Of a DNA stretch of 64,000 nt, positions 1-64,000 are shown piece after piece (positions within the stretch are counted from its first letter, which is position 1; each line of letters opens with the position of its first letter). The position numbers and the translations under genes were made by a program. The notes under the pieces were generated by a model, which saw only the letters and a list, made by a program, of their open reading frames with translations, was not told the DNA's origin and did no database searches. Source of the DNA: a virus (lineage: Duplodnaviria; Caudoviricetes); IMG/VR virus record IMGVR_UViG_3300034375_007061, positions 1 to 64,000 of that record, one strand, 5' to 3'.

Positions 1-7
1 AGACAAC

Positions 8-1393
8 GTGCTAGGTTATGGTGTCATTCCAGATACAAACGTTGCATTCTCAGAAGCAACGGTTAGCCGTTATGCACTAGGTATCTACACAACAGATACG
101 AACGTAACAGCAGGTATTAATGGTTGGAGTACCCAAGCAGACGGATACAATGGTACAACTTATACAGATGCCGACGGAAATTCTGTAAATTATGGTAATG
201 GTGACGACACTATTGGTATCAGTTGGACTTGGACAGGTGTTAGCGCAGGCGACATAATGGAAGCAAGTTATGCATACATCTTTGGACCAAGTGCGTTTGA
301 TGCAGCAGAAGATGCTATTACAGGTGGTGCTGGCGGTGGTGCTGACGTTAGTAGTTGGGGTACATTAGAGGATGTTGGTTCAGCAACAGATGCGGCAAGC
401 GGCGGAGGTTCAACTCCAGAACCAGTTATCACAACTGAAACCGTAGTTGACACAAGTCGTCCAGTACTAACAGCAAGTATTACACACCATGAGTCAAGTG
501 TAGCAGCAGGCGTTCAAACTATTGATCGTGAAACTACTACAACTACAACTACTCCAATGGTAACCAACACTTACACAGATGGTACACTTACTTCAAGTGC
601 AGTAGCAGATAGTGCTATAACTTCAGCAGTCACAGATCCAGGTGCATTTGTTGGACGCATGGATCAAGTTGATCAAATGATGGCACTAAATCCACACAAA
701 AGCCTAGGCATTGCTGATGGTGTATCAGGCGGCAGAATATCACATGATATGGGCAACGGCTACAGCGCAGAAACAACAGCATACGGACTAGGACATAGTG
801 TTGGCACAGACAACGGAATGTTAGTAAGTGGCGGCATCAACTTTGCTGATACAACGCTAACAGGTGAAGGCAGTAGTGGTGAAATGAGCACAATGATTAT
901 TCAAGGTAGAGTTGGTAAAACATTGGACAATAGAGATGCAACCGTTAGTGTTGGTGCTCACATGGCCAACAGCGATATATCATACAACAGAACCATTGGA
1001 GACTTTGGTGCAGCAGGTGAAACCACAAGCAGAGATATGGGTGCAACCATTATGGTAGAAAAGTCAACAGGCACCGTTCGTCCGTTTGCTGGTTATACAC
1101 TTGGATCACAATCTACAGATGCTTGGACAGAAACTGGCGATGTACAAGCGGTTATTGATCATGCAGCAGCAGATGAATCATATCGTTATGCTACCATTGG
1201 TATGAATATTGATACTGGTGTATTCACAGCAAGTTTCGCTAAAGACTTTGACGATGCAGAAACAATGCGCATAGGCTTAGGTATCAACAAAGATATCAAT
1301 CAGCGTGTGAGTTTTGGAGCAAATGCAAACAGAGTCACAGCAGGTGACAACACGAGCACATATATTAGTGCTGGTATTAAAATTCGATTCTAA
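8..1393 (+). CDS. Autotransporter-like outer-membrane beta-barrel protein, probably 5'-truncated by the window edge
   Basis: Gly/Thr/Ser-rich N-terminal region, C-terminal amphipathic beta-strands (VRPFAGYTL, YISAGIKIRF) and terminal Phe. Confidence 0.55.
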   Translation: MLGYGVIPDTNVAFSEATVSRYALGIYTTDTNVTAGINGWSTQADGYNGTTYTDADGNSVNYGNGDDTIGISWTWTGVSAGDIMEASYAYIFGPSAFDAAEDAITGGAGGGADVSSWGTLEDVGSATDAASGGGSTPEPVITTETVVDTSRPVLTASITHHESSVAAGVQTIDRETTTTTTTPMVTNTYTDGTLTSSAVADSAITSAVTDPGAFVGRMDQVDQMMALNPHKSLGIADGVSGGRISHDMGNGYSAETTAYGLGHSVGTDNGMLVSGGINFADTTLTGEGSSGEMSTMIIQGRVGKTLDNRDATVSVGAHMANSDISYNRTIGDFGAAGETTSRDMGATIMVEKSTGTVRPFAGYTLGSQSTDAWTETGDVQAVIDHAAADESYRYATIGMNIDTGVFTASFAKDFDDAETMRIGLGINKDINQRVSFGANANRVTAGDNTSTYISAGIKIRF

Positions 1394-1925
1394 TAATCGA
1401 ACAACCTAAAGCAGTGGCAGCCGCATCTTGTATATCAAAGCGGCTGTCGCCTAGTTCTTTAGCAACACCTACAGCAAGTGCAGCGGCACAGCCTTTCCAT
1501 CTGCTACCTGTGTAGTATGATACCGTTTCACCCACAGCAGCACCAACTAAAATATGTCCTATTTTATCGTCGTCTCCTGTCAAACTATAGTTACCATATG
1601 CAGCATGAGCATGAATAATGCTCATTGGAATTGCTAAAATATCCAATCCTTGATCGTGCATCCAATAGTTTAATCCAATACGAGCAGCAAAATATAATGC
1701 TACTTCTCCTTGACTAGGATATGGACCCATGATTATGTTTTTTTCTCTGTATCCGTCCCAACCCCTACTAGCAATCATATCTGTGCTATGCCAGTCTAAT
1801 GCTATCCAAGCACTACTTCGCCAGAAGTTATCTCGTGTTTGTTTGTCCCAATCTTCCCATGATAGTGCTATATTTGGTAAAAATACCAGTAAAAATGCTA
1901 AAATCCTCATTGTTGGCGCCCTCAT
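1377..1925 (-). CDS. Secreted/membrane protein with YfiM/DUF2279-like C-terminus
   Basis: Signal peptide; DDKIGH...AAALAVGVAKELGD...DAAATALG pattern. Confidence 0.45.
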   Translation of the reverse strand: MRAPTMRILAFLLVFLPNIALSWEDWDKQTRDNFWRSSAWIALDWHSTDMIASRGWDGYREKNIIMGPYPSQGEVALYFAARIGLNYWMHDQGLDILAIPMSIIHAHAAYGNYSLTGDDDKIGHILVGAAVGETVSYYTGSRWKGCAAALAVGVAKELGDSRFDIQDAAATALGCSIIRIEF

Positions 1926-1963
1926 TCTAATAGTATTTAACTAAATAGTTTGAGGGCTATAAT

Positions 1964-2341
1964 ATGAAATATTTAATGATCGCTGTTCTCGCGGTGTGGG
2001 CAACTTCCGTGAGTGCAAGTGAGTCAAACAAAATGGCTAAATGGTGTGTGGATAATACCGCAAACTGGAATGCCGCCGCAAGTTGCCACGCAGAATATAG
2101 ACAAAAAGTTCGTGCTGAACAATATGCCGAACTACGAGACTTTCTCAAACACAATCCAAGATATCGTGTGCCAGGACAGAGTTTAAATCGCTGTTGGGGC
2201 AAACCACGAGAAATGCCATTTGAAAGTGCTTATATTAAAGTTGACAATAATGGGTTTGAAGCAGGTGTAAATTACAAAGATAAACTGCCAGCAGGTTGTT
2301 ATGAAAATGCTCCTTGGGACAACAGGGAGGCAAAACAATGA
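1964..2341 (+). CDS. Secreted hypothetical protein
   Basis: Signal peptide, 4 Cys, GAGG RBS and TAAATA motif upstream. Confidence 0.6.
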   Translation: MKYLMIAVLAVWATSVSASESNKMAKWCVDNTANWNAAASCHAEYRQKVRAEQYAELRDFLKHNPRYRVPGQSLNRCWGKPREMPFESAYIKVDNNGFEAGVNYKDKLPAGCYENAPWDNREAKQ

Positions 2342-2496
2342 AATGGCTAGTACTTGTTACAATCTTAACTTTTGTTGGACTCGCAATGGTAGTGTATGAT
2401 GGACCTAGTAAATCTTATTGGGAAGATGTTGGACCTTCATGGGACCGTATGCTTAATCCAAATAAATACAAGGAACAGCAAGATGAAGGAAGTTAA
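2338..2496 (+). CDS. Small membrane protein
   Basis: ATGA overlap with the previous gene; hydrophobic N-terminus MKWLVLVTILTFVGLAMVV. Confidence 0.5.
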   Translation: MKWLVLVTILTFVGLAMVVYDGPSKSYWEDVGPSWDRMLNPNKYKEQQDEGS

Positions 2497-2498
2497 TA

Positions 2499-8579: not shown

Positions 8580-8974
8580 TATATGTACAAGGCGGCACAA
8601 AAGCACAACGCAAGTATGCTTACAGCATGGCAGACTACGTTTGTAACAAATTTAATATAAATCCTGACATTGAAATCTCATTCCGCAGACTTACAAACGA
8701 TCGCAGTCTAGGTGGTTGTGTGCAAGTTGATAATCACGAATACGAAATTGACATCAAACGTAGTTTGCGACTACGTGACTTACTTACTACTCTTGCACAC
8801 GAGCTTGTGCATGTAAAGCAATATGAGCTCGGTCAACTCAATCATTGTGCAGAAGAAGAATTTGACTATTGGGACAAGCCTAGCGAAATCGAAGCGCATG
8901 GCAGAGAAACAGGTTTGTTTGTTACATGGGCTGAACAAAACAAACTAGCACATAAGAAGTGGACACAAGTATGA
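8576..8974 (+). CDS. Zincin-like metallopeptidase
   Basis: TLAHELVHVKQY (HExxH) and downstream PSEIEA. Confidence 0.75.
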   Translation: MIYVQGGTKAQRKYAYSMADYVCNKFNINPDIEISFRRLTNDRSLGGCVQVDNHEYEIDIKRSLRLRDLLTTLAHELVHVKQYELGQLNHCAEEEFDYWDKPSEIEAHGRETGLFVTWAEQNKLAHKKWTQV

Positions 8975-9474
8975 GTAAATTCTTTTTTGAACGTTTGCAT
9001 CAAGGATACAAAGGTCAAAAATATTCATCAAATATTAGATGTAATTATCATTTTTGTAATAATAATGCTACATTAAATAAGGGTGTTGGTGAACGTTACT
9101 GCGATCATCATCAAAGTTTACTGAGAGAATATGGCGGACCTGCACGGACAGATCGCCCGTGGACCTTTAATAAAAAATCTTGTTGTGATTTCTGTGGCAA
9201 GGATCCATGGCAGCATCCTAAAGTAAAACAAATCAGTGACGAGCTTATACGTGATCGTGTTGCATGGGGAATGTTGATTGTTGATCATATTATCCCACAA
9301 AAATATGGCGGTAGTGATGCACCTGAAAACTGCCAAACACTTTGTTTAGATTGTAATCAAATTAAAACCACGCTGGCTTGTGATAGTATGCCAAGAGCAT
9401 TATACAATGATAAATCAGAATATGATTCAGTAAAGCAAAGATTAAAGCCTTGGTTAGATAAGTTATTTGGTTGA
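8959..9474 (+). CDS. HNH endonuclease
   Basis: CDFC...VDHIIPQKYGGSDAPENCQTLCLDCN. Confidence 0.85.
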   Translation: MDTSMSKFFFERLHQGYKGQKYSSNIRCNYHFCNNNATLNKGVGERYCDHHQSLLREYGGPARTDRPWTFNKKSCCDFCGKDPWQHPKVKQISDELIRDRVAWGMLIVDHIIPQKYGGSDAPENCQTLCLDCNQIKTTLACDSMPRALYNDKSEYDSVKQRLKPWLDKLFG

Positions 9475-11562: not shown

Positions 11563-11846
11563 CAGAAACTTTGACAAAAACAGAAGCAGTAGGTAGGCTT
11601 ATTGAACTAGCTAAAGAAATGGAAGTTACAGATCCAATTGATTGGTCTAAGGTTAATGTTACTGAAGATCAAATTTATGAAATGATGGCCGGAAGTGTTT
11701 TAGACCAGATGTATAGTGTGCCATTAGAACATAGAGAAACGGTTAGCATGGCAACGCTTACTAAATTACTGGTAGAAAATTTCACACTTAAATTTAACTT
11801 AGAAGAGGAAAAGAAAAAACATGCCCTTAGTGCCAATAGTCGTTGA
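11559..11846 (+). CDS. Hypothetical protein
   Basis: Coupled ORF. Confidence 0.55.
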
Positions 11847-12438
11847 ATCAGAAGCAAGAGGCGAACGTAGTTACGATATCTATAGCAGACTACTAAAAGA
11901 CCGTATTATTATGCTTAACAGCGTAGTAGAAGATAATATGGCTAATTTAATTGTAGCACAGATGTTGTTCTTAGAAGCAGAAAATCCTGACAAAGATATT
12001 AACTTGTATATTAACTCGCCAGGTGGTTCAGTTACAGCAGGTCTTGCTATCTATGATACAATGCAGTTTATCAAACCGGATATTAAAACTATTGTAATGG
12101 GTCAAGCTGCAAGTATGGGTAGTTTTCTAGCACAAGCTGGTGCAAAAGGCAAACGTTGTGTGTTGCCAGAATCACGCACTATGATCCATAGAGTGTCAAG
12201 TGGTACTAGAGGTACAAGCGGTAGTGTGCATGTACAAGAACTAGAGTTTGAAGATGCACGTAGACATTTTGAAGAAAGTAAACGGTTAAATGAACGTCTA
12301 ACAGAACTTTATGTAAAACACAATACTGCTGGCAAAACTTATGAAGAACTATTTGAAACTATGAAGTTTGATACCTTCTTAAGTGCAGAACAAGCAGTAG
12401 AAAACGGTTTTGCAGATAAAGTTATCGAACAACGATGA
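11821..12438 (+). CDS. clpP: ATP-dependent Clp protease proteolytic subunit
   Basis: [36 protein letters not shown]. Confidence 0.95.
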
Positions 12439-16440: not shown

Positions 16441-16530
16441 GGACAGGTGGCTGAGTGGTCGAAAGCGGCACCCTGCTAAGGTGTTGAGGGGGCAACTCCT
16501 CCCAGGGTTCGAATCCCTGTCTGTCCGCCA
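16441..16530 (+). tRNA. tRNA-Ser(GCT)
   Basis: Cloverleaf, loop CT-GCT-AA, long variable arm, TTCGAAT, encoded CCA. Confidence 0.95.
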
Positions 16531-16531
16531 C

Positions 16532-16607
16532 GCTGGTTTAGCTCAGTTGGTAGAGCGCTTCACTTGTAATGAAGATGTCGCGAGTTCGAATCTTGCAACC
16601 AGCACCA
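16532..16607 (+). tRNA. tRNA-Thr(TGT)
   Basis: Cloverleaf, CTTCA-CTTGTAA-TGAAG, CCA end. Confidence 0.95.
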
Positions 16608-16610
16608 TAT

Positions 16611-16695
16611 GCGGATATGGTGGAATTGGTAGACACGCTAGATTTAGGTTCTAGTGCCGCAAGGCGTGGGGGTTCAAGTCCCTCTATCCGCACCA
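16611..16695 (+). tRNA. tRNA-Leu(TAG)
   Basis: CTAGA-TTTAGGT-TCTAG, variable arm, CCA end. Confidence 0.95.
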
Positions 16696-16710
16696 AATTA
16701 AAAAAAGTGG

Positions 16711-16739
16711 TTGACAAACCAAACTAAATAAAGTATAAA
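16711..16739 (+). promoter_or_regulatory. sigma70-type promoter for tRNA unit 2
   Basis: TTGACA-17 bp-TATAAA; the -10 region overlaps TATAAATA, a T4 late-type motif. Confidence 0.75.
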
Positions 16740-16765
16740 TAAGTATAGACAAAAGGAATACTAAC

Positions 16766-16828
16766 ATGATCAAGACTAACACAACATCGATAATAGGTTG
16801 GCCATCACGAAAGTGGGGTATGTCTTGA
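16766..16828 (+). CDS. Putative attenuator leader peptide MIKTNTTSIIGWPSRKWGMS
   Basis: AAGGA RBS about 8 nt upstream; the 3' end overlaps the antiterminator arm; codons match downstream tRNAs. Confidence 0.75.
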   Translation: MIKTNTTSIIGWPSRKWGMS

Positions 16829-16863
16829 CGTGACTTTTTAAAAAGTTATTTGAGATAAGCCCC
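16815..16863 (+). promoter_or_regulatory. Antiterminator hairpin, mutually exclusive with the terminator
   Basis: GGGGUAUGUCUUGA (16815-16828) pairs with UUGAGAUAAGCCCC (16850-16863); inner stem GUGACUUU/AAAGUUAU. Confidence 0.7.
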
Positions 16864-16891
16864 TAGCATTAAGTTGTTAGGGGCTTTTTTT
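16857..16891 (+). terminator. Intrinsic terminator of the attenuator
   Basis: AAGCCCCTAGCA-TTAAGT-TGTTAGGGGCTT ending in a T7 run. Confidence 0.9.
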
Positions 16892-16917
16892 ATTAAAGGA
16901 GTGAAACATAGTTTTTT

Positions 16918-17005
16918 GTCGGTTCGGTGCAGTTGGAGTGGCACACTGGTCTCCAAAACCAGGATTAGAAATAATCAGGGGGTTCGAATCCCTCAACCGA
17001 TGCCA
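16918..17005 (+). tRNA. tRNA-Trp(CCA) with an atypical long variable arm
   Basis: CTGGT-CTCCAAA-ACCAG; extra arm GATTA-GAAA-TAATC; GTCGGTT/AACCGAT acceptor, G-CCA. Confidence 0.85.
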
Positions 17006-17007
17006 AT

Positions 17008-17084
17008 CTTGGTGTGGCCTAGTCTGGTAAGGCGCTTGATTTGGGTTCAAGAGATCGCAGGTTCGAATCCTGCCACCAAGACCA
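17008..17084 (+). tRNA. tRNA-Pro(TGG)
   Basis: CTTGA-TTTGGGT-TCAAG, CCA end. Confidence 0.95.
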
Positions 17085-17088
17085 TTAT

Positions 17089-17161
17089 GCGGATGTTCTC
17101 CTGGGAGAGGACTCAGCCTTCCAAGCTGATGGAGTCGGTTCGAATCCGGTCATCCGCTCCA
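17089..17161 (+). tRNA. tRNA-Gly(TCC)
   Basis: TCAGC-CTTCCAA-GCTGA, U73, CCA end. Confidence 0.9.
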
Positions 17162-17165
17162 ACAA

Positions 17166-17253
17166 GGAGAGTTGGCCGAGCGGTCGAAGGCGCTAGTCTT
17201 GAAAACTAGAGTACGGCAACGTACCGTGGGTTCGAATCCCACACTCTCCGCCA
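17166..17253 (+). tRNA. tRNA-Ser(TGA)
   Basis: CTAGT-CTTGAAA-ACTAG, long variable arm, G73, CCA end. Confidence 0.95.
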
Positions 17254-17257
17254 TAAT

Positions 17258-17334
17258 GCTCCTGTGGTGTAACGGTTAACACTCACCGCTCATAACGGTC
17301 GCGATTGTAGGTTCGAATCCTACCGGGAGCACCA
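17258..17334 (+). tRNA. tRNA(CAT), probably Ile2 (lysidine type) rather than Met
   Basis: CCG-CTCATAA-CGG anticodon arm typical of Ile2; lacks initiator features. Confidence 0.8.
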
Positions 17335-17337
17335 TAT

Positions 17338-17431
17338 AGTCCCATAGTTTAGCGGTAAAACACCCGGCTTATATCCGGCATTGTCTCCAGATTAGAGAGC
17401 GTCCCAGGTTCGAATCCTGGTGGGACTACCA
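17338..17431 (+). tRNA. tRNA-Ile(TAT) with a long extra arm
   Basis: AGTCCCA/TGGGACT acceptor, CCGG-CTTATAT-CCGG, about 24 nt variable region, perfect T arm, A-CCA. Confidence 0.8.
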
Positions 17432-20750: not shown

Positions 20751-20771
20751 AAAATCTAGTATACTACACTT

Positions 20772-32005: not shown

Positions 32006-32026
32006 GTTACTTCATAGGAGGAAATA

Positions 32027-45500: not shown

Positions 45501-46760
45501 AGAGACGGAGCAACTGGTGTAAGCACAATTGGTCCAGGAGTTATGAGCTTGGGTGGTCCAGGTTATAGCGAAACACCAATGAACGGCAACCTTAATGTTG
45601 GTAGCAATAGAGTTATAAATGTTTCAGATCCACTTGCTTTAAGTGATGCAGCAACTAAAAACTATGTTGATAATAAAACTGATGAATTAAATGATATTGG
45701 TGACGTAACTATCACAGGTGCAGGTAACACTATTCAAGCACAAATTTTAGGCTTTACTGGTCAAGGTTCAGTAACTGATCAACTCAGTGAAAATATGGCA
45801 GTAACTGGTGATATTGGTTTGACATATGATCCACTTATTCCTAACACAATAACAGCAGCTATTTCGTCAGGTGTGATTGTTAACGGCGATATAAGCGCAA
45901 CAGCAGCTATAGATCAAAGCAAACTGAACATGACTATAGCAACAGCAACAGCAGCAGCACCTACAGGTGATGCAGCAGCTATACAAGCAGCAAGTGGTCT
46001 AGCAAGTTTTGATAGTGCAAACTTTGAAATTACAGACGGATGGGTTGGCATTAAAGCAAACGGTGTTAGTAATGCAGAACTAGCTAACAGCAGTATTACT
46101 ATTGGTAGTACAAGTATTAGTCTTGGTGGTACTGCAACAAGTATTGCTGATATGACAGGCATTGATTTTGCAAGTGGTGTGCTAGGTGGTACATTTACAA
46201 TTAACTTAGATGACGGTGCTAACACGGTGTTCTCTGTTGATTCATCTGGTAACATCTTAGGCCCTGCAAACACAAGCGGTAATGCAACAGGAGATAACGC
46301 TGTTAGCATAGGTGGAAGTTTAAATCGTTATAATACGGTTTGGGCAACTACATTTAATGGTGAAGCAACTAGTGCATTATATGCTGACCTTGCTGAAAAT
46401 TATTTAGGGGATGCTGATTATGAGCCAGGTACCGTTCTAGTATTTGGTGGCGAACAAGAAGTAACCGTATGCACTGCAAAAGGTCAAACTAGTGTAGCAG
46501 GTGTTGTAACTACAAATCCAGCGCACCTAATGAATAGCGCATTAGAAGGCGACAATGTAGTAGGTTTAGCTCTAACAGGGCGTGTGCCATGTAAAGTAAT
46601 AGGTCGGGTGCAAAAAGGTGATATGCTTGTAACTAGTGCCGTTCCGGGTTATGCAATAGTAAACAACTCTCCAGGCGTTGGACAAGTAATAGGTAAAGCA
46701 GTCGGTGTCAAAGATCACGAAGACCGCGGTATAGTTGAAGTAGTGGTAGGGAGAGTATAA
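39531..46760 (+). CDS. Giant baseplate/tail-fibre structural protein
   Basis: T4 gp9/10-like N-terminus (GNDGTGDSIR..F.K.N.NF), repeated beta domains, C-terminal YADLAENY intramolecular-chaperone-like domain. Confidence 0.8.
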   Translation: MARQEIDIGVEGNDGTGDSIRESFKKVNTNFQELYAVFGLGGSISFKNLDDTPDSYLANQFAVTAINSTETQIQFYKFVSDSGLNNNDKSSPSETTNSVFVEFDDVDPATPDLSGTIKISIVDPHINRDPDPNLTAPLNMEAPIAYSSVVNTKLRNTGAGDNINTLVTEWENVHTGAPAISVDNLVISKGYADDTYVNVAGDTMTGALSVPSGATGAQVPQTQEVITRAGSVANRTMLDELYLNDHPYPLAGAGTPNGPDDLLAVSKLYVDTQGFSSSTNLYVATTGDDAQTLTPAGQEGRSPQYAYKSVSKAMQRATQIIEATPIEPGPYIQVVTHSQKKFNSTILSTAGFTASIATADVASNTAIDNIEVAQEAVVDYLTATYPDFIYDKIICQRDAKLMIDSVRLDVQQGLSANYLTRWAAIRYNASPSAIKARTLQLTQTVESIGIIKTTIVDAFNALNTATPGSISASVITAYQNRFDEIISILNNGGDIPGAITQNDGTEYVFNFDNGNNSAVDQGVVGNPDLREGKVIVGRTSGAKGIITDYVRNQDVGISDRVSIQLLEPIEFQIGEELEFGARTRSNQITVRVESGIYFEHLPIKLPENVSIKGDEFRRVVIRPKPGVSQSPWAPTYFYRDINVDGLIAAYSPIATINNVSGADVSRAAGTYAIGADDWSSPGIGQDATFSVVVDGSGAATVTVTNAGDGFIQGETITINDSDLGAGGGANLTFDVATTGGGYNFTHPITGIQGKYGRHYMTDPSEDIQIGTDASSNPGNFDDAARLIELNKDFLVEETIAFVNDTYPAPGFTYNEAKCRRDTRLIIDGIVNDLRIGGRENTLTNQGAYYAGAVSGQETETEAAILHLKPVITNILANDSGNGFVVTTGNTEPQVFDEDYAAETNAETNALELVDCVAFAFDPAYNPPLNNSEMDVFLCNDGTIVRNITVQRHGGFMMTLDPEGQILTRSPYCQTGTSFSQSKGVARSFAGGLFIDGYASNMPADIIGKTDNFNLQVQSPNGEGLYIRKPETPFPFFKDGARYQVNVIKDWDQATGTATLVLDETSNPSSVFTRNITSITNADPAVITTTVAHGLVDGDAITITGVSGMTDVNGNTYYVNAPTTTTLQLYIDEDRTASVDSTGFGTHTAGTGIVRALATGRGYTATIPGVPPYDSIFLQSGGNRSMLANDFTQINDLGYGALLTNNALAELVSMFTYYCHTGYMADKGSQIRSLSGNNSYGFYGLVAAGADPDEIPTDVTLADDMVFPAKVFRSAGYLDFASATPGTVVADQLLSQGAINASITSTSTTNPVRVTATAHGLSSNDVVTISSVTGMIELNGRTFYISVIDANNFDLYIDSGLTNGEDGTAYSAGTGGLASKSATATAKISFKGEGNKRLYLYDITGTFNTTETCTTPTGSAGIPSSFTSQEYDADTGALKVFAYDLSGYPLNVSEAEIYHGSGLYQPYEITNANGEDFRLGSYSFDATDYATVVTGGTATPSTNAQLTITKTRTDGYGVIVDDGGGGYAQGETIVIDGQYLGGATSTNDVTITIDSVSSGAIVTASVTTGVAQLDDSTPIIDGKVWTFNLGTGIEGTAENGLQEATLHDNRIVVRHKQNFVLDNFPEEELPVRPSTAFVFTDDTTDYTYRTIAFTTTITGGVNATGDQKVVTFDANFRYIDLVVDSAICGVTEVFFNSNSTVDPNYTDIVGTASSPAPSSLITLGNTAATTSTDGSRFIAISPLDSTDQARIAGGEMLVSWGGKTYTIDAYAEYDFSGATHASFGNVTRTVGIIEITEVANSDINFPQLSGSVYGGLGAALYTGTNGAGITLKGGLAGGEEAEITVNISTCRATGHDMLDIGVGGFNTANYPERIYGQPFGYEAVSTNDAIDSTGNKSAAQTQERNKGRVFSVLTDQDGFFRVGRFFTVDQGTGAVTFNAALVLTNIDGIGFKRGVRVNEFSNDDTFTDAKGDAVPTQTAVEGYINARLGFDRDGATGVSTIGPGVMSLGGPGYSETPMNGNLNVGSNRVINVSDPLALSDAATKNYVDNKTDELNDIGDVTITGAGNTIQAQILGFTGQGSVTDQLSENMAVTGDIGLTYDPLIPNTITAAISSGVIVNGDISATAAIDQSKLNMTIATATAAAPTGDAAAIQAASGLASFDSANFEITDGWVGIKANGVSNAELANSSITIGSTSISLGGTATSIADMTGIDFASGVLGGTFTINLDDGANTVFSVDSSGNILGPANTSGNATGDNAVSIGGSLNRYNTVWATTFNGEATSALYADLAENYLGDADYEPGTVLVFGGEQEVTVCTAKGQTSVAGVVTTNPAHLMNSALEGDNVVGLALTGRVPCKVIGRVQKGDMLVTSAVPGYAIVNNSPGVGQVIGKAVGVKDHEDRGIVEVVVGRV

Positions 46761-47059
46761 TGGCACAAAAAATAATTAATGTTGGAACAAAAGCAAATAG
46801 CGGAGGGGGTGATCCTCTCCGCGATGCAATGATTAAAATTAATGAAAACTTTACAGAGGTTTATGCTGACATAGCAGCATTAGAAGATGGCAATGTTACA
46901 ACTGATATAAAAGGTAGTGTGTTTGCCGACGATAGTACATTACTTGTTGATGCTGTAAATGGTGTTATTCCGGGTTATGTAAGTTTAGCAACATTGCAAT
47001 CTGAAGTAGCAGCAAGCGCAGACTTTGCTGACTTTCAAGCAAGAATAGCAGCATTGTAA
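46760..47059 (+). CDS. Small structural protein with a gp9/10-like N-terminus
   Basis: GGGDPLRDAMIKINENF. Confidence 0.65.
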   Translation: MAQKIINVGTKANSGGGDPLRDAMIKINENFTEVYADIAALEDGNVTTDIKGSVFADDSTLLVDAVNGVIPGYVSLATLQSEVAASADFADFQARIAAL

Positions 47060-47096
47060 ATATACGATAAATATAAAAAAGAACAGGATTTAGAGA

Positions 47097-48509
47097 ATGG
47101 CAAATAGATTTCCACTAGTAGTAGATACAGATGACGGTAACAAAATTAAAGAATTACCAAGTGGTGATGTCCTTAATTTAGCTAATAGCGGTCTTACAGG
47201 ATTAAGCAGTTTGAGTGTAGTTGGCGCATTAAGTGGTGGTACACTTGCTAGTTCAGGAGATGCAAGTGTAGGCGGTAATTTTACGGTTACTGGTACAAGC
47301 ACTTTTACTGGAAGCATCACAAGCGGCGCTATTTCAAGCACTGGTTCAATTATCACTACTGGCAATATAAGCAGTGGAACCTTAACCGTAAACGGCGAAA
47401 CCGTAGCAGCACAAGTTCAATCAGATTGGGCTATAGCAAACCAAAACGATGTAAGATTTATAAGAAATAAACCTGATTTAAACAATATTAACGAACTAAA
47501 TGATATTGGCGATGTATTTGTTTCTGATGCATTACCAGGCGAAGTTCTAACATGGGACGGATTTAGTTGGCAATCTGAGCCAGCGGCTGGCGGTATAGCA
47601 CTGGCAGATCTAGAAGTAATATCAAATCCGCCATCAGGATCGGGTAGTCTTACATATAACGATGCAACTGGTACATTTACTTTTACTCCTGCTGATCTTC
47701 CTACTACATTACAAGAATTGTCAAATGATCCCGGAGTTAATCCTGATTCATTCTATGTGAACGTTGGTTATCTAAATACAAATGAATATTTAAAACAATC
47801 TAGTGTTCTTGTGACCGCTGGTAGAATTAGTTTAGATAAAACCGTTGACGGAGTAATTACAATTAGTTTTGATGCAAGTGGTTTACTTACTGCTGAAACA
47901 GACACACTTGCAAGTGTTGCTGCACGTGGAGCCGATGCAGAAACTGCTATTGTTGCAACAGCATTTAATGTTTCAGGCACAAGTGTTTTAACAAGTACAT
48001 TAAAAGATGTAGTTGTTGATAGTTTAGATAATGTTGGAAATTATACAACAACAAATGGTAATATCACAACAACAAACGGAGCTATCACTGCTGGCGGCAC
48101 TATACAAGGTAATACACTAACTGCTACGTCCGAAGGTAATATTCCAATCATCAATGGTGTAACACGAGTGCAAAACAGCGGTGGTAATGTTTTACTTAAT
48201 GGTACACGAATAGATATTGACAACGGCTTACTTACATTACGTTCTAGTGCAATTGGCGGCCCTGCTTCACCAACTATTGGCGATATATATTCAGATGGTG
48301 TTACAATATACTTTTATGCGCAGGACAACGGTAGCGGAAGCAATGGGTGGGTACAAATGCCAGGTCAATTTGGTACACTTGGTTTAAATTTACCTGTATT
48401 TGATAATGCAACTCCAGCAGGTGCAGTTAGAGGTGCAATGATATACGACGAAAATGATTTTAAAGTAAAAGTCTTTAATGGTACCAGTTGGGAAACCGTA
48501 GGTCCGTAA
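47097..48509 (+). CDS. Tail fibre-like structural protein
   Basis: Gly/Thr-rich beta repeats, QSDW..IRNKP, LNDIGDV, GEVLTWDG. Confidence 0.65.
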   Translation: MANRFPLVVDTDDGNKIKELPSGDVLNLANSGLTGLSSLSVVGALSGGTLASSGDASVGGNFTVTGTSTFTGSITSGAISSTGSIITTGNISSGTLTVNGETVAAQVQSDWAIANQNDVRFIRNKPDLNNINELNDIGDVFVSDALPGEVLTWDGFSWQSEPAAGGIALADLEVISNPPSGSGSLTYNDATGTFTFTPADLPTTLQELSNDPGVNPDSFYVNVGYLNTNEYLKQSSVLVTAGRISLDKTVDGVITISFDASGLLTAETDTLASVAARGADAETAIVATAFNVSGTSVLTSTLKDVVVDSLDNVGNYTTTNGNITTTNGAITAGGTIQGNTLTATSEGNIPIINGVTRVQNSGGNVLLNGTRIDIDNGLLTLRSSAIGGPASPTIGDIYSDGVTIYFYAQDNGSGSNGWVQMPGQFGTLGLNLPVFDNATPAGAVRGAMIYDENDFKVKVFNGTSWETVGP

Positions 48510-55775: not shown

Positions 55776-56459
55776 ATGAATACTAGAACAATGACCAGTG
55801 CTTACTATGACGAAGCACTGAGAACTTTTATGCTTGCACTATATAACTACACTGCAATTGGTTTGGCAATTACAGGTTTAGTTGCATATCTAACTTATGC
55901 AAGTGGATTAATGTACGCAATGGGTCCACTAATGTGGGTAGCAGTGTTTGCTCCACTTGGTATGATCCTATACTATAGTTTTGCTGGACAAAACTGGAGT
56001 TTTGAAACTACAAGAACTTTCTACTATGTGTTTACAGCAGTAATGGGCATTAGTATGAGCACAATCTTTGCTGTATATACAGCAATCAGTATTGCTCAAG
56101 TGTTCTTTATTACAGCAGCAACATTTGCTAGTGCTAGTTTGTATGGTTATACTACCAAAAAAGACCTAAGCGGTTGGGGTAGTTTTTTACTAGTTGGATT
56201 GATTGGTATTATCATTGCAAGCATTGTTAATATCTTTTTGCAAAGCAGTGCTCTTGAATTTGCAGTAAGTGTGATTGGGGTGTTGATTTTTACAGGTCTT
56301 ACAGCATACGATACACAACATGCTAAAAGTATGTTTGTAAGTGGACGTATGAACGCAAAAGAAACAGCCAAATTTGCTATTCAAATGGCACTGAGCTTGT
56401 ATCTAAACTTTATCAATCTATTCCAAATGTTGCTGAGTTTACTCGGCAATAGAGAATGA
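55776..56459 (+). CDS. Bax inhibitor-1/YccA family membrane protein
   Basis: 7 TMs, YGYTTKKDLS, AYDTQ, ALSLYLNFINLF. Confidence 0.9.
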   Translation: MNTRTMTSAYYDEALRTFMLALYNYTAIGLAITGLVAYLTYASGLMYAMGPLMWVAVFAPLGMILYYSFAGQNWSFETTRTFYYVFTAVMGISMSTIFAVYTAISIAQVFFITAATFASASLYGYTTKKDLSGWGSFLLVGLIGIIIASIVNIFLQSSALEFAVSVIGVLIFTGLTAYDTQHAKSMFVSGRMNAKETAKFAIQMALSLYLNFINLFQMLLSLLGNRE

Positions 56460-57070
56460 TTCTTTGTGACGTAGAATTTGAACTACCAAAAGGCCCTGTC
56501 GGTGTGTTGTGCAGCGGCGGGGCTGATAGTTCATTAATCCTTTATTTGTTAATGAAACATAGTAATCAACCATTACATGTCCTTACAATGGCAAATAGAA
56601 AAAAACATTTTACTAATGCTATAGTTGTAAGTAAAGTAATAGATTGGTGTATGAAAAAAACAAACAATAATAATATTGTACATACCGTAAAATACGTCGA
56701 TGAGCAAACAGACGAGCAATTACAACAACTAACAATTCAACATCTAAAAGTATTCCGTACAATTTACATTGGTGATACTTGTTATCCACCAGAAGATATA
56801 CATGATGAATTTGTACAAAATACAGGCGATAGTTTTAATAAACTAGAAGATAGAAAACCAAATAAAAATCGTGCAACAAAAGCAGGGCCAATATATGTTC
56901 CATTTACAAATTATAACAAAAGAAAAATAGCCGAAATATACGAACATCTTGATATTATGGAACTTGCAGATATTACTCGCAGTTGCGAAACATTTGAAGA
57001 TATTGGTACAAAACATTGTGGTAACTGCTGGTGGTGCAAAGAAAGAGAATGGGCTTTTGATAAACGGTAA
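56456..57070 (+). CDS. QueC-like PP-loop ATPase
   Basis: SGGADS, TRSC, HCGNCWWCKER. Confidence 0.7.
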   Translation: MILCDVEFELPKGPVGVLCSGGADSSLILYLLMKHSNQPLHVLTMANRKKHFTNAIVVSKVIDWCMKKTNNNNIVHTVKYVDEQTDEQLQQLTIQHLKVFRTIYIGDTCYPPEDIHDEFVQNTGDSFNKLEDRKPNKNRATKAGPIYVPFTNYNKRKIAEIYEHLDIMELADITRSCETFEDIGTKHCGNCWWCKEREWAFDKR

Positions 57071-57914
57071 AATTATTAATGACAAAATTCTAGTGCATAC
57101 AGCTCAATGGTATATTACTCATACATGTAATATATCATGTAATCATTGTTTGAGTTACAATAACTATAATATTAAAGGACATGACAATTTTAAAGAAAAT
57201 TTAATTTATGCTAAAGAATGGGCTAAAAAAATTATAATCAAAGACTTTACAATTGTAGGAGGCGAAGTTTTTACACACAATAACCTTAATCAATGGGTTT
57301 TTGGCTTACGAGAAATTTTTCCTGACATAGAAAATTTTAAAGTTCTTACCAACGGTACCGTACTATCAAAGTATGCAGATAGCTTTGATAAATGGTTTGA
57401 AAAAAATATAATTATTGAAATTAGTTTTAAAAGAGAAGAAGATTATAATGATCTTTACGAAATTTTAAAAAGATATAAAAATGTTGAACGTAAAATTCAC
57501 TTTATGTATGATGAGGCAATCTATATAAACGGTAAACTTTGTTTCTTAGTTGAATATTGTGACTCGCATATGCAATGGGGAATAAAAGAATACAAAGAAG
57601 GATTTTATGAATTTTATAATAGTAATAGCGAAGAAGCTCATAAATCATGCTGGCAAAAAGATTGTCACTATTTTTACAAAGGCAATTTATACAAATGCGG
57701 AACTATTGTTGGTGCTCAAGAATTTGTAAAAAACTTTCCTGTAAAAGAGCATATTAAAAGTAGAATAAATGGATATGCACCTTTGAAATATGATCATCCT
57801 GAGTTACTTGAACAAATTAAATCTTTAAATAATCATATTCCACAATGCTCATTGTGTCCATCTATTGCTTTAGATGATAAATTAGTTGTTGACAATAAGA
57901 AAATATTGCCGTAA
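56949..57914 (+). CDS. Radical SAM protein (start uncertain)
   Basis: CNISCNHC, VGGE, TNG, C-terminal CSLC. Confidence 0.8.
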   Translation: MILWNLQILLAVAKHLKILVQNIVVTAGGAKKENGLLINGKIINDKILVHTAQWYITHTCNISCNHCLSYNNYNIKGHDNFKENLIYAKEWAKKIIIKDFTIVGGEVFTHNNLNQWVFGLREIFPDIENFKVLTNGTVLSKYADSFDKWFEKNIIIEISFKREEDYNDLYEILKRYKNVERKIHFMYDEAIYINGKLCFLVEYCDSHMQWGIKEYKEGFYEFYNSNSEEAHKSCWQKDCHYFYKGNLYKCGTIVGAQEFVKNFPVKEHIKSRINGYAPLKYDHPELLEQIKSLNNHIPQCSLCPSIALDDKLVVDNKKILP

Positions 57915-59957: not shown

Positions 59958-60868
59958 AAGAACTATGGGTAGAGAAGTATCGTCCAAAAACGGTGGACGG
60001 TTATGTATTTAGAGATGACGCACAAAGAAAACAAGTTAAGACATGGATCAAAGATAAAACTATTCCGCATTTGCTTTTTAGTGGCAATGCTGGGATTGGT
60101 AAAACTACTCTTGCTAAGTTACTTTTTAACGAGCTCGACATAAATCCATTAGACATATTAGAGATTAACGCAAGTCGCACAAACTCAGTAGATGATGTGC
60201 GAGACAAGATTGTTGCGTTTGTGCAAATGATTCCATTTGGTGACTTTAAAGTTGTGTTGCTAGATGAGGCTGATTACTTGTCGCCAAACGCACAGGCAGC
60301 ATTGCGTGGTGTTATGGAAGAATATCACAATACAGCAAGATTTATTTTAACGTGTAACTATCCAAACAGAATTATTCCAGCGATCCACAGCAGATGCCAA
60401 GGCTTCCACATTGCTAAAATTGATCAAACAGAGTTTACTGCTAGAGTAGCAGAGATTCTTATCACAGAAGGTATTACTCCAGATTTAGATACGCTTGATA
60501 CATATGTAAAAGCAACTTATCCAGACTTGCGCAAGTGTATCAATATGGTACAAATGAATTCAGTTGAAGGGAAACTTGTATCTCCACAAGAAGGCGATAG
60601 CGGAGAAGCTGACTGGAAACTGGACATGGTTGAGCTGTTTAAAGCAGGTAAGATTCATGATGCAAGAAAGTTGTTGTGTGGTACGGTACGTGCTGAAGAA
60701 ATGGAAGAAATTTATCGTTGGTTGTATGACAATATTGAATTGTTTGGAACAGACGAACAACAAGACCAGGCCGTGCTAATTATTAAGCAAGGATTGGTAG
60801 ATCACACATTGGTTGTAGATCCAGAGATTAACTTAGCAGCTACATTGATTCGTTTAGGAGCATTATGA
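59936..60868 (+). CDS. Clamp loader AAA+ subunit (T4 gp44/RFC-like; start probably 59954)
   Basis: LWVEKYRP, G.GKTT, NAS, LDEADYL, SRC. Confidence 0.9.
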   Translation: MGTGRRMKELWVEKYRPKTVDGYVFRDDAQRKQVKTWIKDKTIPHLLFSGNAGIGKTTLAKLLFNELDINPLDILEINASRTNSVDDVRDKIVAFVQMIPFGDFKVVLLDEADYLSPNAQAALRGVMEEYHNTARFILTCNYPNRIIPAIHSRCQGFHIAKIDQTEFTARVAEILITEGITPDLDTLDTYVKATYPDLRKCINMVQMNSVEGKLVSPQEGDSGEADWKLDMVELFKAGKIHDARKLLCGTVRAEEMEEIYRWLYDNIELFGTDEQQDQAVLIIKQGLVDHTLVVDPEINLAATLIRLGAL

Positions 60869-61293
60869 AAATTCTAATATTTGGTTTGCCCGGATCGGGT
60901 AAAACCACATTGGCAAAACCTTTTGCTGAACTTATAGGCGGTGTGCATATTAATGCAGACAATGTGCGTAGTCATTATGCTGATTGGGATTTTACACCAG
61001 AAGGACGTATGCGTCAAGCGGCACGTATGCGTTATCTAGCAGACGGTGTTGTAATGGCAGGCAAAGTAGCAGTTGCAGATTTTGTTGCGCCTACTGATCA
61101 AGCACGTATGGAGTTTAATCCAGATTTTACGGTATGGATGGATACTATTAAAGAAGGTAGATTTGCAGACACAAATAAAATGTTTGTGCCTCCTGCCCAT
61201 TTTGATTATCATGTAAGTAAATGGTTTACGGATACACATGAACAACTTATGAAAATTGTTGCAACTTTTATGGATAGAAATAAAAATGTTTGA
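60865..61293 (+). CDS. Adenylyl-sulfate kinase-like P-loop kinase
   Basis: GLPGSGKTTLA, NADNVR, DFTPEGR. Confidence 0.7.
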   Translation: MKILIFGLPGSGKTTLAKPFAELIGGVHINADNVRSHYADWDFTPEGRMRQAARMRYLADGVVMAGKVAVADFVAPTDQARMEFNPDFTVWMDTIKEGRFADTNKMFVPPAHFDYHVSKWFTDTHEQLMKIVATFMDRNKNV

Positions 61294-61675
61294 TTGGAAA
61301 AAACCAACAGCACAAATGCTTGGGCGGTGGCAACCTTGGCATGATGGGCATACAGAATTATTCAAAAAAGCCTTGACAAATACTGGTCAAGTTTGTATAA
61401 TGATAAGAGATGTTTGCGGTGTTGATGCAGGCATGGGGAACAATGATAATCCTTTTAACTATAGAGTAGCAAGGAAAAATATCATAGACGGGCTTGCTAA
61501 ACACGGTTACACTTGCGGTGAAGAATATGAAATAATAAGTGTTCCTAATATTGTTGATATTAGTTACGGAAGAAGTGTTGGATATACTTTTACACAACAC
61601 AACTTAGGGGAAGAAATACACAATATTAGTGCCACAAAGATTAGAGCAAAAATGAGAGAGAAAGGCGAACTATGA
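61256..61675 (+). CDS. Cytidyltransferase-like HIGH nucleotidyltransferase (start probably 61286)
   Basis: [17 protein letters not shown]. Confidence 0.75.
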
Positions 61676-62013
61676 CATATATTGTAAATGATCAATGCAT
61701 TAAATGTAAACACATGGATTGTGTTGAAGTTTGTCCAGTAGATTGTTTCTACGAAGGTGAAAACATGTTGGTGATAAATCCGCAAGAATGTATTGATTGC
61801 GGAGTCTGTGAGCCAGAATGCCCTGCTGACGCCATTTGGCCTGATACAAAAGAAGGAGCAGACAAATGGGTAGAATTTAATCAAAAATATGCAGACTTAT
61901 GGCCAGTTATTACTGAAATGCGTCCAGAGGATGTGCCAGAGGATGCAGATAAATGGCACGGGATGGAAGGCAAAATGGAATACTTCAGTGAGGCACCAGG
62001 ACGTGGCGACTGA
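61672..62013 (+). CDS. fdxA: 7Fe/8Fe ferredoxin
   Basis: [30 protein letters not shown]. Confidence 0.95.
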
Positions 62014-62172
62014 TAACAAAAGTTTGATAAATGATATTGTAAGAGTAAGTGTATTAGAAGAAGAAATAGAATATTACAAAACACTTTTACAGCCTAGTGA
62101 CACTGGACATATCCACACAACAATAAATTTTTTAAGTCAAAGACTATCTAACATCAAAGGAGAATTAGCGGG

Positions 62173-62865
62173 ATGGCCGTTCGATTAGTAAGTTACACAA
62201 AAGCAACAGAAGAATTTGTAAAAGAAGGCATCAACAACGATGATTTGTTGGATTTGGTTGCATTTTGTGCTAGGGTAAGTAATCCTGCCAATCAAATGAA
62301 TAGTGAAACAAGTGAAAAACTTGTAAAGTATTTGATCAAACACGCACACTGGTCACCACTGGAAATGGTAAACGTGTGTATGGAGATTGACACTACACGT
62401 GATATTGCACATCAGATTGTGCGTCACCGTAGTTTTGCTTTCCAAGAGTTTAGTCAGCGTTATGCAGAGCCTGGCGATATGGGCGAAGTATTTGTAACAA
62501 GTGAAGCAAGACTACAAGATACTAAAAATAGACAGAACAGCATTGAACTAGACTTAGGCGCAGAAGGCAATGCCGAACTTGTTTCACGTTGGGAGGAGCT
62601 TCAGCAAGATGTTTGCTTTACAGCAGGCAAAGCATATGACTGGGCAATCAATAACGGTATTGCTAAAGAAGTTGCACGTAAAGTACTGCCAGAAGGACTT
62701 ACAAAAACAAGATTGTATATGAATGGTACACTGCGTAGTTGGGTGCATTATATTGAGTTGCGAGGTGCTAATGGAACACAAAAAGAACACATGGAGATCG
62801 CTTGGGAGTGTGCTAAGGTCATCGCAGAGATATTTCCTCTTGCAGCAGAACTCAATGCCTCCTAG
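62173..62865 (+). CDS. thyX: Flavin-dependent thymidylate synthase
   Basis: HWSPLE, QIVRHRSFAFQEFSQRY. Confidence 0.95.
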   Translation: MAVRLVSYTKATEEFVKEGINNDDLLDLVAFCARVSNPANQMNSETSEKLVKYLIKHAHWSPLEMVNVCMEIDTTRDIAHQIVRHRSFAFQEFSQRYAEPGDMGEVFVTSEARLQDTKNRQNSIELDLGAEGNAELVSRWEELQQDVCFTAGKAYDWAINNGIAKEVARKVLPEGLTKTRLYMNGTLRSWVHYIELRGANGTQKEHMEIAWECAKVIAEIFPLAAELNAS

Positions 62866-63115
62866 TATTGAAATAGATGTAGAATGGAAAGAACACTATG
62901 CATGGTGGCCTGTGCGTAGTAGTTGGAGTAAAAAACTAATATGGTTTAAAAAATATTGGAAAGGAGAAATCTTCTATGATGCTATGGGAAGACCGCCAAT
63001 AAAGGAAAGTAGTTGGAAACTCGTCTACACGGAAAACGAGTATTTGCTGTATCTTTTAAAACAGGATGAAAAATACAATCATCCTTTAGCATTCAAGAGT
63101 GTAAGGGCTATCTAG
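62855..63115 (+). CDS. Hypothetical Trp-rich protein
   Basis: MPPSIEIDVEW...; 3' part of the 62723 ORF. Confidence 0.5.
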   Translation: MPPSIEIDVEWKEHYAWWPVRSSWSKKLIWFKKYWKGEIFYDAMGRPPIKESSWKLVYTENEYLLYLLKQDEKYNHPLAFKSVRAI

Positions 63116-63123
63116 CCCTTACT

Positions 63124-63855
63124 TTATGCGTCTCCGTAAATTTCTAAGACTTCTTTAACAGCTTCATGTCTTTCAATATCTCCTTTGTGGAAGTTTACCA
63201 CACTAATTGTTTTAGTTTCTGTATTATTTAATTGATTAGTAAAATGTATTAGTCCATTATCTTTGAGCCTATCAGCTTGTGCTAGGTCTCCTGTAACAAC
63301 CATTTTACTACCTTTCCCAATACGTGTAAGCAACATTTTCATTTGATTTGGTGTTGCATTTTGCATTTCGTCAGCAACTATAAAACTATTTTTAAATGTC
63401 CGTCCACGCATGTATGCTAGTGGTGATATTTCAATTACACCTTCTTGAATCATGGATTCAATTTCATTAGCATAAAAATATTCGCGAAATACATCAAAAA
63501 TAGGTCTTGTCCATGGAGCCATTTTTTCTTCTAATGTACCAGGCAAGAATCCTAGATCTTCGTCTGCACTTACAGCCGGTCTAGTGACAACAATTTTTTC
63601 TACATCTGTATCTATAAATGCCTTCACTGCTGCCTGACAGGCTAGTAATGTTTTACCTGTACCTGCTGGACCAATTCCAAATACAATATTTTTCGATTCG
63701 TCTAAAAGTTCAATTACATAATCTTCTTGACTTCTATTTCTTGGAAGTAAAGATACTGATTGACTTTTTTTTGGAAGGAAATTATTTAATCTAACAACAT
63801 TATTACTATTGTTTGCTTTTACAAATGCTTGCCGTCTAGCTTGCTTTTTACCCAT
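63124..63855 (-). CDS. phoH: PhoH-like ATPase
   Basis: GPAGTGKT, RPAV, LGFLPG, YMRGRT, DEMQN, TGD..Q.D. Confidence 0.95.
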   Translation of the reverse strand: MGKKQARRQAFVKANNSNNVVRLNNFLPKKSQSVSLLPRNRSQEDYVIELLDESKNIVFGIGPAGTGKTLLACQAAVKAFIDTDVEKIVVTRPAVSADEDLGFLPGTLEEKMAPWTRPIFDVFREYFYANEIESMIQEGVIEISPLAYMRGRTFKNSFIVADEMQNATPNQMKMLLTRIGKGSKMVVTGDLAQADRLKDNGLIHFTNQLNNTETKTISVVNFHKGDIERHEAVKEVLEIYGDA

Positions 63856-64000
63856 TTACACCTCCTATGAGTTAGGCAGGGTCTTCCATTTGCAGGAAGT
63901 GGCTCCCTGCTAATGTATTTACATTTGATTTGCTATCATAAAGTGCGTACTGAATTTAAACCTATATAGATCTTAAAGTGATAAATATTAAAAAGAGAAA

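Follow-up and report, generated by a model that had tools for sequence, protein, structure and literature searches.

The DNA analysed here (the window) is the first 64 kb, 64,000 nt, of IMGVR_UViG_3300034375_007061, a 113,734-nt IMG/VR record assigned to the Caudoviricetes and referred to below as contig G000. The window contains no copy of the pentanucleotide ACWGT, that is, of ACAGT or ACTGT, each of which is the reverse complement of the other (the pattern was searched on both strands). The gene discussed as the probable counterpart of this absence lies on the same contig beyond the window and encodes a solitary 177-aa nuclease of the GIY-YIG type. All other G- and L-numbers designate contigs and loci that were fetched for comparison, and all records are fragments. 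The features on which the argument leans are the following:

1-64000, no strand: DNA free of ACWGT, as are the remaining contig sequence up to 113,734 and the overlapping contigs G012 and G011
59-64, plus strand: ACGGTT example, sequence confirmed
440-445, plus strand: ACCGTA example, sequence confirmed
41628-41639, plus strand: ACCGTTACCGTT, two Thr-Val junctions ACC-GTT, an escape from ACW-GT in codon phase 0, sequence confirmed
8959-9474, plus strand: HNH endonuclease gene (PHROG HNH matches), an insertion private to the G000 sublineage
contig 105,137-105,670, outside the window, plus strand: gene for the solitary GIY-YIG (Hpy188I-like) nuclease, 177 aa, assigned by homology, fold and site association

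An earlier note on this DNA, in which the letters had been read by eye, had found no ACAGT or ACTGT where base composition predicted about a hundred. The exact counts agree with it, since ACAGT and ACTGT both occur 0 times in the window and are thus nowhere near the expected frequency: a maximal-order Markov model predicts 94.6 ACWGT sites, the mean of 100 dinucleotide-preserving shuffles is 180.55 (standard deviation 13.2), and in the Markov comparison of all 5-mers ACWGT is the most depleted one (z -9.7). Given that ACCGT is found 55 times and ACGGT 70 times, the avoidance does not extend to ACNGT, a point already made in the earlier note. Over the whole contig, 0 ACWGT sites stand against a Markov expectation of 162.6, with 214 occurrences of ACSGT, and the only other 5-mers missing are CGCGC and GCGCG. 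Two overlapping contigs, G012 and G011 (overlap identity 100% and 99.99%), extend the phage past the right end of G000; the joined sequence of 212,081 non-redundant nt contains 0 ACWGT sites, where 560-645 would be expected at the density of the long relatives G001-G005. CheckV places the completeness of the 113,734-nt contig at 32%, from which a jumbo phage of roughly 350 kb can be estimated.

The avoidance is also visible in codon choice. In the open reading frames (ORFs) of the whole contig, threonine is encoded by ACA or ACT in 1,849 of 2,157 cases, yet every one of the Thr-Val junctions (78/78) uses ACC or ACG, which is the contrast that the earlier note had described from the window, and its three examples (at 41628, 59 and 440) are found in place. 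In the relative G001, by comparison, 226 of the 234 Thr-Val junctions use ACA or ACT. Thr-Val dipeptides themselves occur at about half the frequency seen in relatives (78 in 113.7 kb versus 234 in 170 kb and 112 in 90.7 kb), and the avoidance may therefore have cost some amino-acid changes as well. Because the absence is repeated in independent assemblies while related contigs keep their sites, it does not represent an assembly artefact, and it is confirmed as a real feature of this DNA.

Five long relatives, G001-G005 (67-170 kb), have 2.64-3.04 ACWGT sites per kb, with an observed-to-expected ratio (O/E) of 0.98-1.12, and G010 has 3.48 per kb. Among 80 IMG/VR loci that were fetched via the family-B DNA polymerase (PolB), seven are without ACWGT (L004-L008, L012 and L071), and the remaining 73 have normal counts, all 80 together holding 2,600 sites versus 2,707 expected in 1.02 Mb. 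In the PolB DNA tree, the eight ACWGT-free rows fall on one side of a branch with a Shimodaira-Hasegawa-like approximate likelihood-ratio (SH-aLRT) support of 97; the stem of this clade is only 0.021 changes per site long, and the clade comprises three sublineages. Other anchor genes led to more ACWGT-free contigs, among them G006 (59 kb), which is about 79% identical to G000 in alignable DNA and no closer to it than site-bearing relatives are. A separate lineage is partly depleted (86 sites versus 235 expected in G014, 17 versus 56 in G015 and 32 versus 71 in G009), and G007 is a mosaic, in which one part is nearly free of sites and the other part is normal. Cultured close relatives were not found by megablast against a phage collection, and the highest PolB identity to isolates is 52%; judging from the accessible part of its text, a paper on moraphages (PMC12619734) apparently does not concern the present phage group.

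To what extent sites are lost can be seen from homologous positions. The ACWGT positions of four relatives are kept in G000 in 0/108, 0/107, 0/78 and 0/84 cases, whereas for 15 control palindromes of the form NNWNN 13-80% of the homologous sites are kept, typically about 35%. We compared 309 distinct lost-site positions, of which 302 lie within ORFs, and 156 of these show synonymous differences only. In principle, such a loss could arise without any selection, by context-specific mutation (e.g., deamination of methylated cytosine in ACWGT) or as an artefact that modified DNA causes in sequencing or assembly, and it is true that among the single changes C>T at site position 2 and the mirror-image G>A at position 4 predominate (39 of 58, at sites present in at least three relatives). 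However, the changed position varies with the codon phase, and in every phase it is the one at which a change is synonymous. In phase 0 (ACW-GTN), the change falls on position 3, W>S (40 cases); in phase 1 (NAC-WGT), on position 2 (45), position 5 (14) or both (8); and in phase 2 (NNA-CWG-TNN), on position 4 (16), positions 1 and 4 (9), position 2 (5) or position 1 (5). Changes of W>S, of position 1 and of position 5 are thus common, and one chemistry cannot give all of them, so that a single mutational process is ruled out by the codon-phase dependence of the replacements, and selection acts on the DNA word. Moreover, the ORFs are intact and the pattern recurs in many independent assemblies, and we regard an origin without selection as having a negligible probability. 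The absence of ACWGT is a product of selection, and the strong selection against one 5-bp site that the earlier note had proposed fits the 0 sites retained, the phase-specific synonymous replacements and the single PolB clade. For sites that are conserved in 5 or more of 18 outgroup loci, the replacement found in G000 is shared across the three ACWGT-free sublineages in 22 of 42 comparisons, so the purge was partly inherited and partly finished independently. For the corresponding comparison of G000 with G006, as to shared or independent origin of the replacements, only 6 sites are usable.

As for the cause, the earlier note had left the choice between a host restriction or defence system and a phage-encoded nuclease, and had named the HNH gene at 8959-9474 as a candidate. 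This gene is not linked to the trait: no homologue is found in G001-G010, including the ACWGT-free G006, which has a radical-SAM-like ORF at this position instead. Several other genes, either private to this phage or common to it and G006, were considered and set aside, as they encode no nuclease and do not track the trait, namely ClpP, a 2-oxoglutarate-Fe oxygenase, a 179-aa ORF after PolB, ORFs private to G011, the QueC-like and radical-SAM genes, the radical-SAM island, and a pair of P-loop kinase and nucleotidyltransferase-like genes at 60865-61675. By contrast with the HNH gene, homologues of the 177-aa ORF occur, among the comparison DNA, only on ACWGT-free contigs, these being G000 itself and, at another locus and with 57% identity, G006, G008 and L116. 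The ORFs that flank the nuclease gene in G000 are not methylases, and no methylase of the N6_N4, m5C or D12 type was detected in G000, G006 and G011-G013. Of the two sources that had been proposed, the evidence thus favours a nuclease of the phage, as developed below, with the qualification that a host system may have begun the purge.

The 177-aa protein matches PHROG 1111, annotated as endonuclease (E 5.6e-11). In a PDB sequence search it finds Hpy188I, a Type IIP GIY-YIG restriction enzyme of Helicobacter pylori (PDB 3oqg/3or3), at E 0.11 when used as a single sequence and at E 1e-4 when used as a profile of 28 homologues, and with this profile Hpy188I is the sole match below E 0.01 (T4 endonuclease II, EndoII, follows at E 0.55). 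The AlphaFold2 model of the protein has a mean predicted local distance difference test score (pLDDT) of 91.7 and a predicted template modelling score (pTM) of 0.86, and a Foldseek search against the PDB at E <= 1e-3 returned seven chains, all of them either Hpy188I (E 3.8e-6) or T4 EndoII (E 1.7e-5). According to the accessible part of PMC3045582, Hpy188I is a dimer that cuts TCN/GA, its GIY and YIG motifs are replaced by LVY and KIG, and its catalytic residues are Tyr63 (the general base, within LVY), Lys73, Arg84 and Tyr88, with the metal-binding Glu149 acting in trans. In the phage family, R44-V45-Y46 is invariant in 28/28 homologues and aligned to LVY, and K56 is invariant and followed by I/L-G, with a Y46-K56 spacing of 10 as in Hpy188I; by the profile alignment alone, Tyr88 and Glu149 correspond to Y73 and E135, both of them invariant. 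In the same alignment Arg84, of the 'arginine helix' of Hpy188I, falls on the invariant T69, the invariant R84 of the family lying 15 residues later. This matching of residues assumes that the PDB chain index equals the numbering of PMC3045582 plus 10. A symmetric homodimer was modelled with a score of 0.77 versus 0.00 for the best of 3 controls, and given that the Hpy188I dimer is a solved structure, this may show likeness and not binding; contacts are reproduced between runs to at least 97%, with a partner pLDDT of at least 86, and the same mark is reached by 20 of 30 proteins whose solved structure is a pair of one chain and by 1 of 23 whose solved structure is a single chain. By its motifs and its modelled fold, then, the protein is a GIY-YIG nuclease of the Hpy188I kind. 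The two have in common their length (~170-180 aa and 177 aa), the xVY and K-I/L-G motifs, the best fold match, the sole significant PDB profile match, a 5-bp palindromic site with a degenerate centre (proposed for the phage enzyme), and the N6-adenine methyltransferase that adjoins the relatives of the phage enzyme in the manner of an R-M system (see below). They differ in sequence (22-23% identity over the fold alignment, template modelling (TM) score 0.52-0.55) and in site (TCNGA as opposed to the proposed ACWGT), and the phage gene is solitary and sits in a viral genome.

An independent comparison was made with loci that were fetched solely by homology to the 177-aa nuclease. Of these, 23 of 25 viral carrier loci are without ACWGT (Markov expectations of 4.6-36.5 per locus), as are 34 of the 46 metagenome loci with identities of 43% or more, which together hold 48 sites versus 670 expected from composition; the 16 more distant metagenome loci are near normal (66 versus 182 sites). 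The carriers represent unrelated phages, because their GC content ranges from 0.32 to 0.47 and their other missing words vary (AGCT with GCWGC, GATC, or ACGT with CASTG). At four of the loci that keep their sites (L542, L576, L577 and L539), the next gene encodes a D12-class N6-adenine DNA methyltransferase; PF02086 matched 4/4 of the nuclease neighbours that were tested (E 1e-23 to 1e-25), and by tblastn the methylase is found beside the nuclease in 28 of 87 loci, either 5-149 nt downstream or just upstream. For the comparison of both states, loci were collapsed to 43 nuclease lineages, 22 of which are informative, in that they have at least 8 composition-expected sites and either a visible methylase or downstream sequence of 1,200 nt or more. 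Nine of the 10 lineages with a solitary nuclease have zero ACWGT and one has sites, whereas all 12 methylase-linked lineages have sites and none is at zero (Fisher p = 2.0e-5). Pooled, the solitary group holds 10 sites versus 318 expected in 151 kb, and the methylase-linked group 104 versus 203 in 98 kb. The longest stretches show the same: a 219,444-nt contig (GC 0.45) with a solitary nuclease of 51% identity has zero ACWGT in all 11 pieces, and an 86,739-nt carrier contig has 2, both within its first 2.1 kb; a D12 methylase was found in none of the five such long carrier records. Thus, a solitary nuclease is statistically tied to the absence of the site, and a nuclease with its methylase to a retained site. 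In the nuclease tree, on which the solitary state arose at least four times, the G000 enzyme is nearest to methylase-linked copies (75-77% identity), and since a methylase adjoins the nuclease in relatives and none was found in G000, the phage copy can be regarded as an orphan derived from restriction-modification (R-M) systems.

A further observation in this abundant marine phage group is that ACWGT is not the only word to be purged. Among 332 related loci, 24 are without CATG, 19 without GTAC, 20 without AGCT, 31 without GCWGC and 13 without ACWGT, and there are single cases without GCGC, CTAG, CTWAG or TGCA. The 81-row PolB tree requires 13 changes of state in total (CATG 2, GTAC 5, AGCT 3, GCWGC 2, ACWGT 1). 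In the long relatives, CATG occurs 0 times versus 373 expected in G002 and 3 versus 233 in G005, GTAC 11 versus 307 in G003, and in G004 AGCT is at 0 versus 179 and GCWGC at 0 versus 62. No nuclease-like cluster specific to the loci free of CATG, GTAC, AGCT or GCWGC was found with PHROGs, a PDB sequence search and the ESM Atlas, the contigs being fragmentary. The CATG-free G002 and G005 share a two-gene cassette that is 96-99% identical between them and missing from all DNA compared that is not CATG-free (G002 46457-47549, L095:6457-7549, minus strand); it encodes a 198-aa protein with a weak J-domain-like match and a 164-aa protein. In G000 itself, other words are depleted as well, with GCTAGC at 0 versus 11.9, AAGCTT at 0 versus 11.4 and GTGCAC at 3 versus 27.6, and O/E values of 0.48 for TCWGA, 0.52 for AGCT and 0.25 for CGCG. 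GCTAGC is near zero in all long contigs, and GTGCAC is also low in relatives.

A pointer to the host comes from the ClpP gene at 11821-12438 of the window, whose product shares 80% identity with the ClpP encoded in the chromosomal tig-clpP-clpX locus of an Oceanospirillaceae metagenome-assembled genome (MAG), while the next 79 matches are at most 59% identical (58% for the second best) and mostly from Gammaproteobacteria. This sequence similarity hints at the host group. The MAG has 567 ACWGT sites in 492 kb, i.e., one about every 870 nt.

Taking these observations together, we consider it probable that the G000 phage carries an orphan Type II restriction endonuclease and protects itself by total avoidance of ACWGT. 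The nuclease family would be the R component of a Type II R-M system recognising ACWGT, and several phages would carry R without M, their DNA being unmethylated at this word. Any ACWGT in the genome would then be cut by the phage's own enzyme; existing sites would have been recoded, mostly synonymously, and new ones would be lethal and removed by selection, which would explain why more than 200 kb contain not a single copy. During infection, the nuclease would probably fragment the DNA of the host, and that of co-infecting phages that still has sites, by analogy with T4 EndoII and the chlorovirus enzymes. For the order of events, two options can be envisaged. Either host restriction of the same specificity purged the sites and the gene was captured afterward, or the first step was an R-M pair, under which imperfect self-methylation favoured the loss of sites before M itself disappeared; an O/E of about 0.5 in the methylase-linked contigs would fit the second route, the baseline of this value being rough. 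The cleavage specificity, which we infer from the genomic correlation, is to be read as part of this proposal, and so are the activity of the enzyme, its biological use and the sequence of events.

Several points weigh against it. The protein has no match to a Pfam family, including the curated GIY-YIG models, at E <= 0.05, its specificity is deduced by correlation, and the contig is a fragment, at the completeness given above. No nuclease is seen on the available fragments of the partly depleted G014, G015 and G009, and the ACWGT-free fragments G013, L008, L012 and L071 cover neither of the nuclease loci. The composition expectation used for the carriers is rough, with the methylase-linked contigs also at only ~0.5 of it. 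Among the solitary carriers, L568 keeps 10 ACWGT sites versus 14.7 expected; its nuclease departs from the family at three otherwise invariant positions (Q61S, K63V, Y86F), and GTP cyclohydrolase I is encoded near it (L568 2353-3063), so that an altered enzyme or a guanine modification could explain the exception. L521, which was merged into a zero-site lineage, also retains ACWGT, but its 10 sites are confined to the final 2.3 kb, and the contig appears to be a mosaic or a chimera. In addition, at about 2.8 sites per kb the uptake of such a nuclease would be unsafe, and another cause must therefore have begun the purge, for which host restriction may have been responsible. Finally, sister lineages have been purged of other words and no nuclease was found for them, and host restriction alone can thus probably yield such patterns.

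The last two points lead to the explanation in which a Type II R-M system of the host purged ACWGT by itself, and the GIY-YIG gene is a passenger that only site-free genomes can tolerate and that does not contribute to excluding the sites. The avoidance of sites under orthodox Type II systems is well established, with (near-)complete loss in about a tenth of viral genomes according to the accessible part of PMC6286503, and the words that the sister lineages lack (CATG, GTAC, AGCT and GCWGC) are classical Type II sites. The existence of a lineage with partial ACWGT depletion also speaks for this explanation, the 22/42 shared replacements would fit a gradual purge, and the Oceanospirillaceae MAG has an ACWGT O/E of 0.76. 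What it fails to explain is that the nuclease tracks the trait across unrelated phages, which differ in GC and in their other purges, and that the same nuclease, when paired with a methylase, sits in DNA that keeps its sites. Conserved catalytic motifs in the solitary copies, as read from their sequences, argue for an active protein, and a search of 400 sampled genomes from the class to which the MAG belongs did not find the nuclease family. Host restriction as the only cause is therefore considered unlikely, although it may well describe how the purge began. It could also be asked whether the target is the palindrome at all or the asymmetric ACAGT on either strand, as would be the case for a Type IIS or Type III enzyme or for the protospacer-adjacent motif of a CRISPR system. 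The absent words are mutually reverse complementary, so the counts fit both readings, and GCWGC is equally ambiguous. Nevertheless, the protein tied to the trait is similar to a Type IIP enzyme that works as a homodimer on a 5-bp site with a degenerate centre, and a symmetric dimer was modelled for it; avoidance of Type III sites is very rare, and none was observed for Type I and IIG, in the part of PMC6286503 that is accessible. The residual sites of the partly depleted lineages follow no clear rule of orientation (31:55, 2:15 and 19:13), nor was a rule found in their flanks. An asymmetric target thus appears highly improbable.

With an orphan phage endonuclease as the preferred explanation, the closest known systems can be compared. 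T4 EndoII (denA, PDB 2wsh) starts the breakdown of host DNA with a loose sequence preference, and the phage DNA is spared via hydroxymethylcytosine. The 177-aa protein is likewise a phage GIY-YIG nuclease and has T4 EndoII as its second-best fold match (TM score to the target 0.64-0.71), but the sequence similarity is not significant, and here it is the complete lack of one specific 5-bp site that would protect the phage, whose enzyme would be R-M-derived. Chloroviruses encode Type II endonucleases that are thought to degrade host DNA and against which cognate methyltransferases protect, whereas the G000 phage has no detectable methyltransferase and no sites. The site of PacI has 8 bp and consists of A/T only, and its absence from a genome needs few or no changes. 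PacI belongs to a bacterial chromosome, while in the present case phage genomes exceeding 200 kb have lost every copy of a 5-bp site with an expected spacing of about 350 nt, and have done so repeatedly, in several phage lineages. The likeness is that a methylase-free Type II enzyme is tolerated through a site-free genome: in Pseudomonas alcaligenes, as given in the accessible part of PMC3488263, PacI is a solitary enzyme and the carrier genome has none of its sites. With classical avoidance of restriction sites by phages, the present case shares the missing short palindrome in the genome of a lytic-type dsDNA phage, in the form typical of orthodox Type II sites (PMC6286503, accessible part); there, however, the enzyme is that of the host, while here the best candidate is in the phage and self-immunity would act instead of, or besides, escape.

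The remaining features of the contig are given for completeness:

contig 69153-71399: ClpB/ClpA-like ATPase
window 16441-17431: nine tRNA genes (Ser-gct, Thr-tgt, Leu-tag, Trp, Pro, Gly, Ser-tga, Met, Ile-tat)
window 36167-37201: UvdE-like UV-damage endonuclease, 42-46% identical to those of Erwinia and Dickeya jumbo phages
window 39531-46760: ORF of 2,409 aa beside tail-fibre-like genes

A 13.5-kb island (window 19042-32560) encodes six radical-SAM enzymes, two of them with SPASM and one with a B12-binding domain, and also holds cytidylyltransferase-like, DUF6267, DUF6071 and metallophosphoesterase genes; it is common to G006 and G010, and in G001-G005 matches are at the level of paralogues only. 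The related contigs have dozens of radical-SAM paralogues, FkbM methyltransferases, nitroreductases, an Asn-synthase-like gene and a tryptophan halogenase, which looks like a large and variable biosynthetic or modification repertoire. At 56456-57914 of the window, a gene for a QueC-like PP-loop protein overlaps one for a radical-SAM protein; this pair is found only in the G000 sublineage and could be part of a 7-deazaguanine pathway, and at the same place G006 has its GIY-YIG nuclease gene instead.

The elements of the proposed strategy are known separately, as site avoidance, the solitary PacI, and the attack of T4 EndoII on host DNA. Within a limited literature search, no paper was found that mentions ACWGT together with 'methyltransferase', or that combines a phage-encoded restriction enzyme with site avoidance, and an orphan R-M-derived endonuclease of a phage linked to genome-wide erasure of a 5-bp word, arisen repeatedly, was not found in print. 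Should the enzyme cut ACWGT, this would be a restriction specificity that the same search did not find described. One might extend the idea and see orphan restriction endonucleases as a general offensive weapon of large aquatic phages, which would gain self-immunity by recoding their entire genome, with each purged word (CATG, GTAC, AGCT, GCWGC, GCGC, CTAG, CTWAG) marking a different captured, unrecognised nuclease that is swapped by recombination; we hold this broader view to be possible but rather doubtful, and if it were true, a missing word would reveal the specificity of an uncharacterised enzyme. The zero counts and the recurrent, lineage-specific purges in any case offer a tractable system for measuring how fast selection recodes a genome. 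If the proposal for the G000 phage is right, total site avoidance in a phage would be no automatic evidence on the defences of its host, and the specificity of such an enzyme would be readable computationally, as the word that is missing near solitary copies and present near methylase-linked ones. The virus would keep the 'R' without the 'M' at the price of several hundred sites erased from more than 200 kb, and a bacterial defence would have become a viral weapon.

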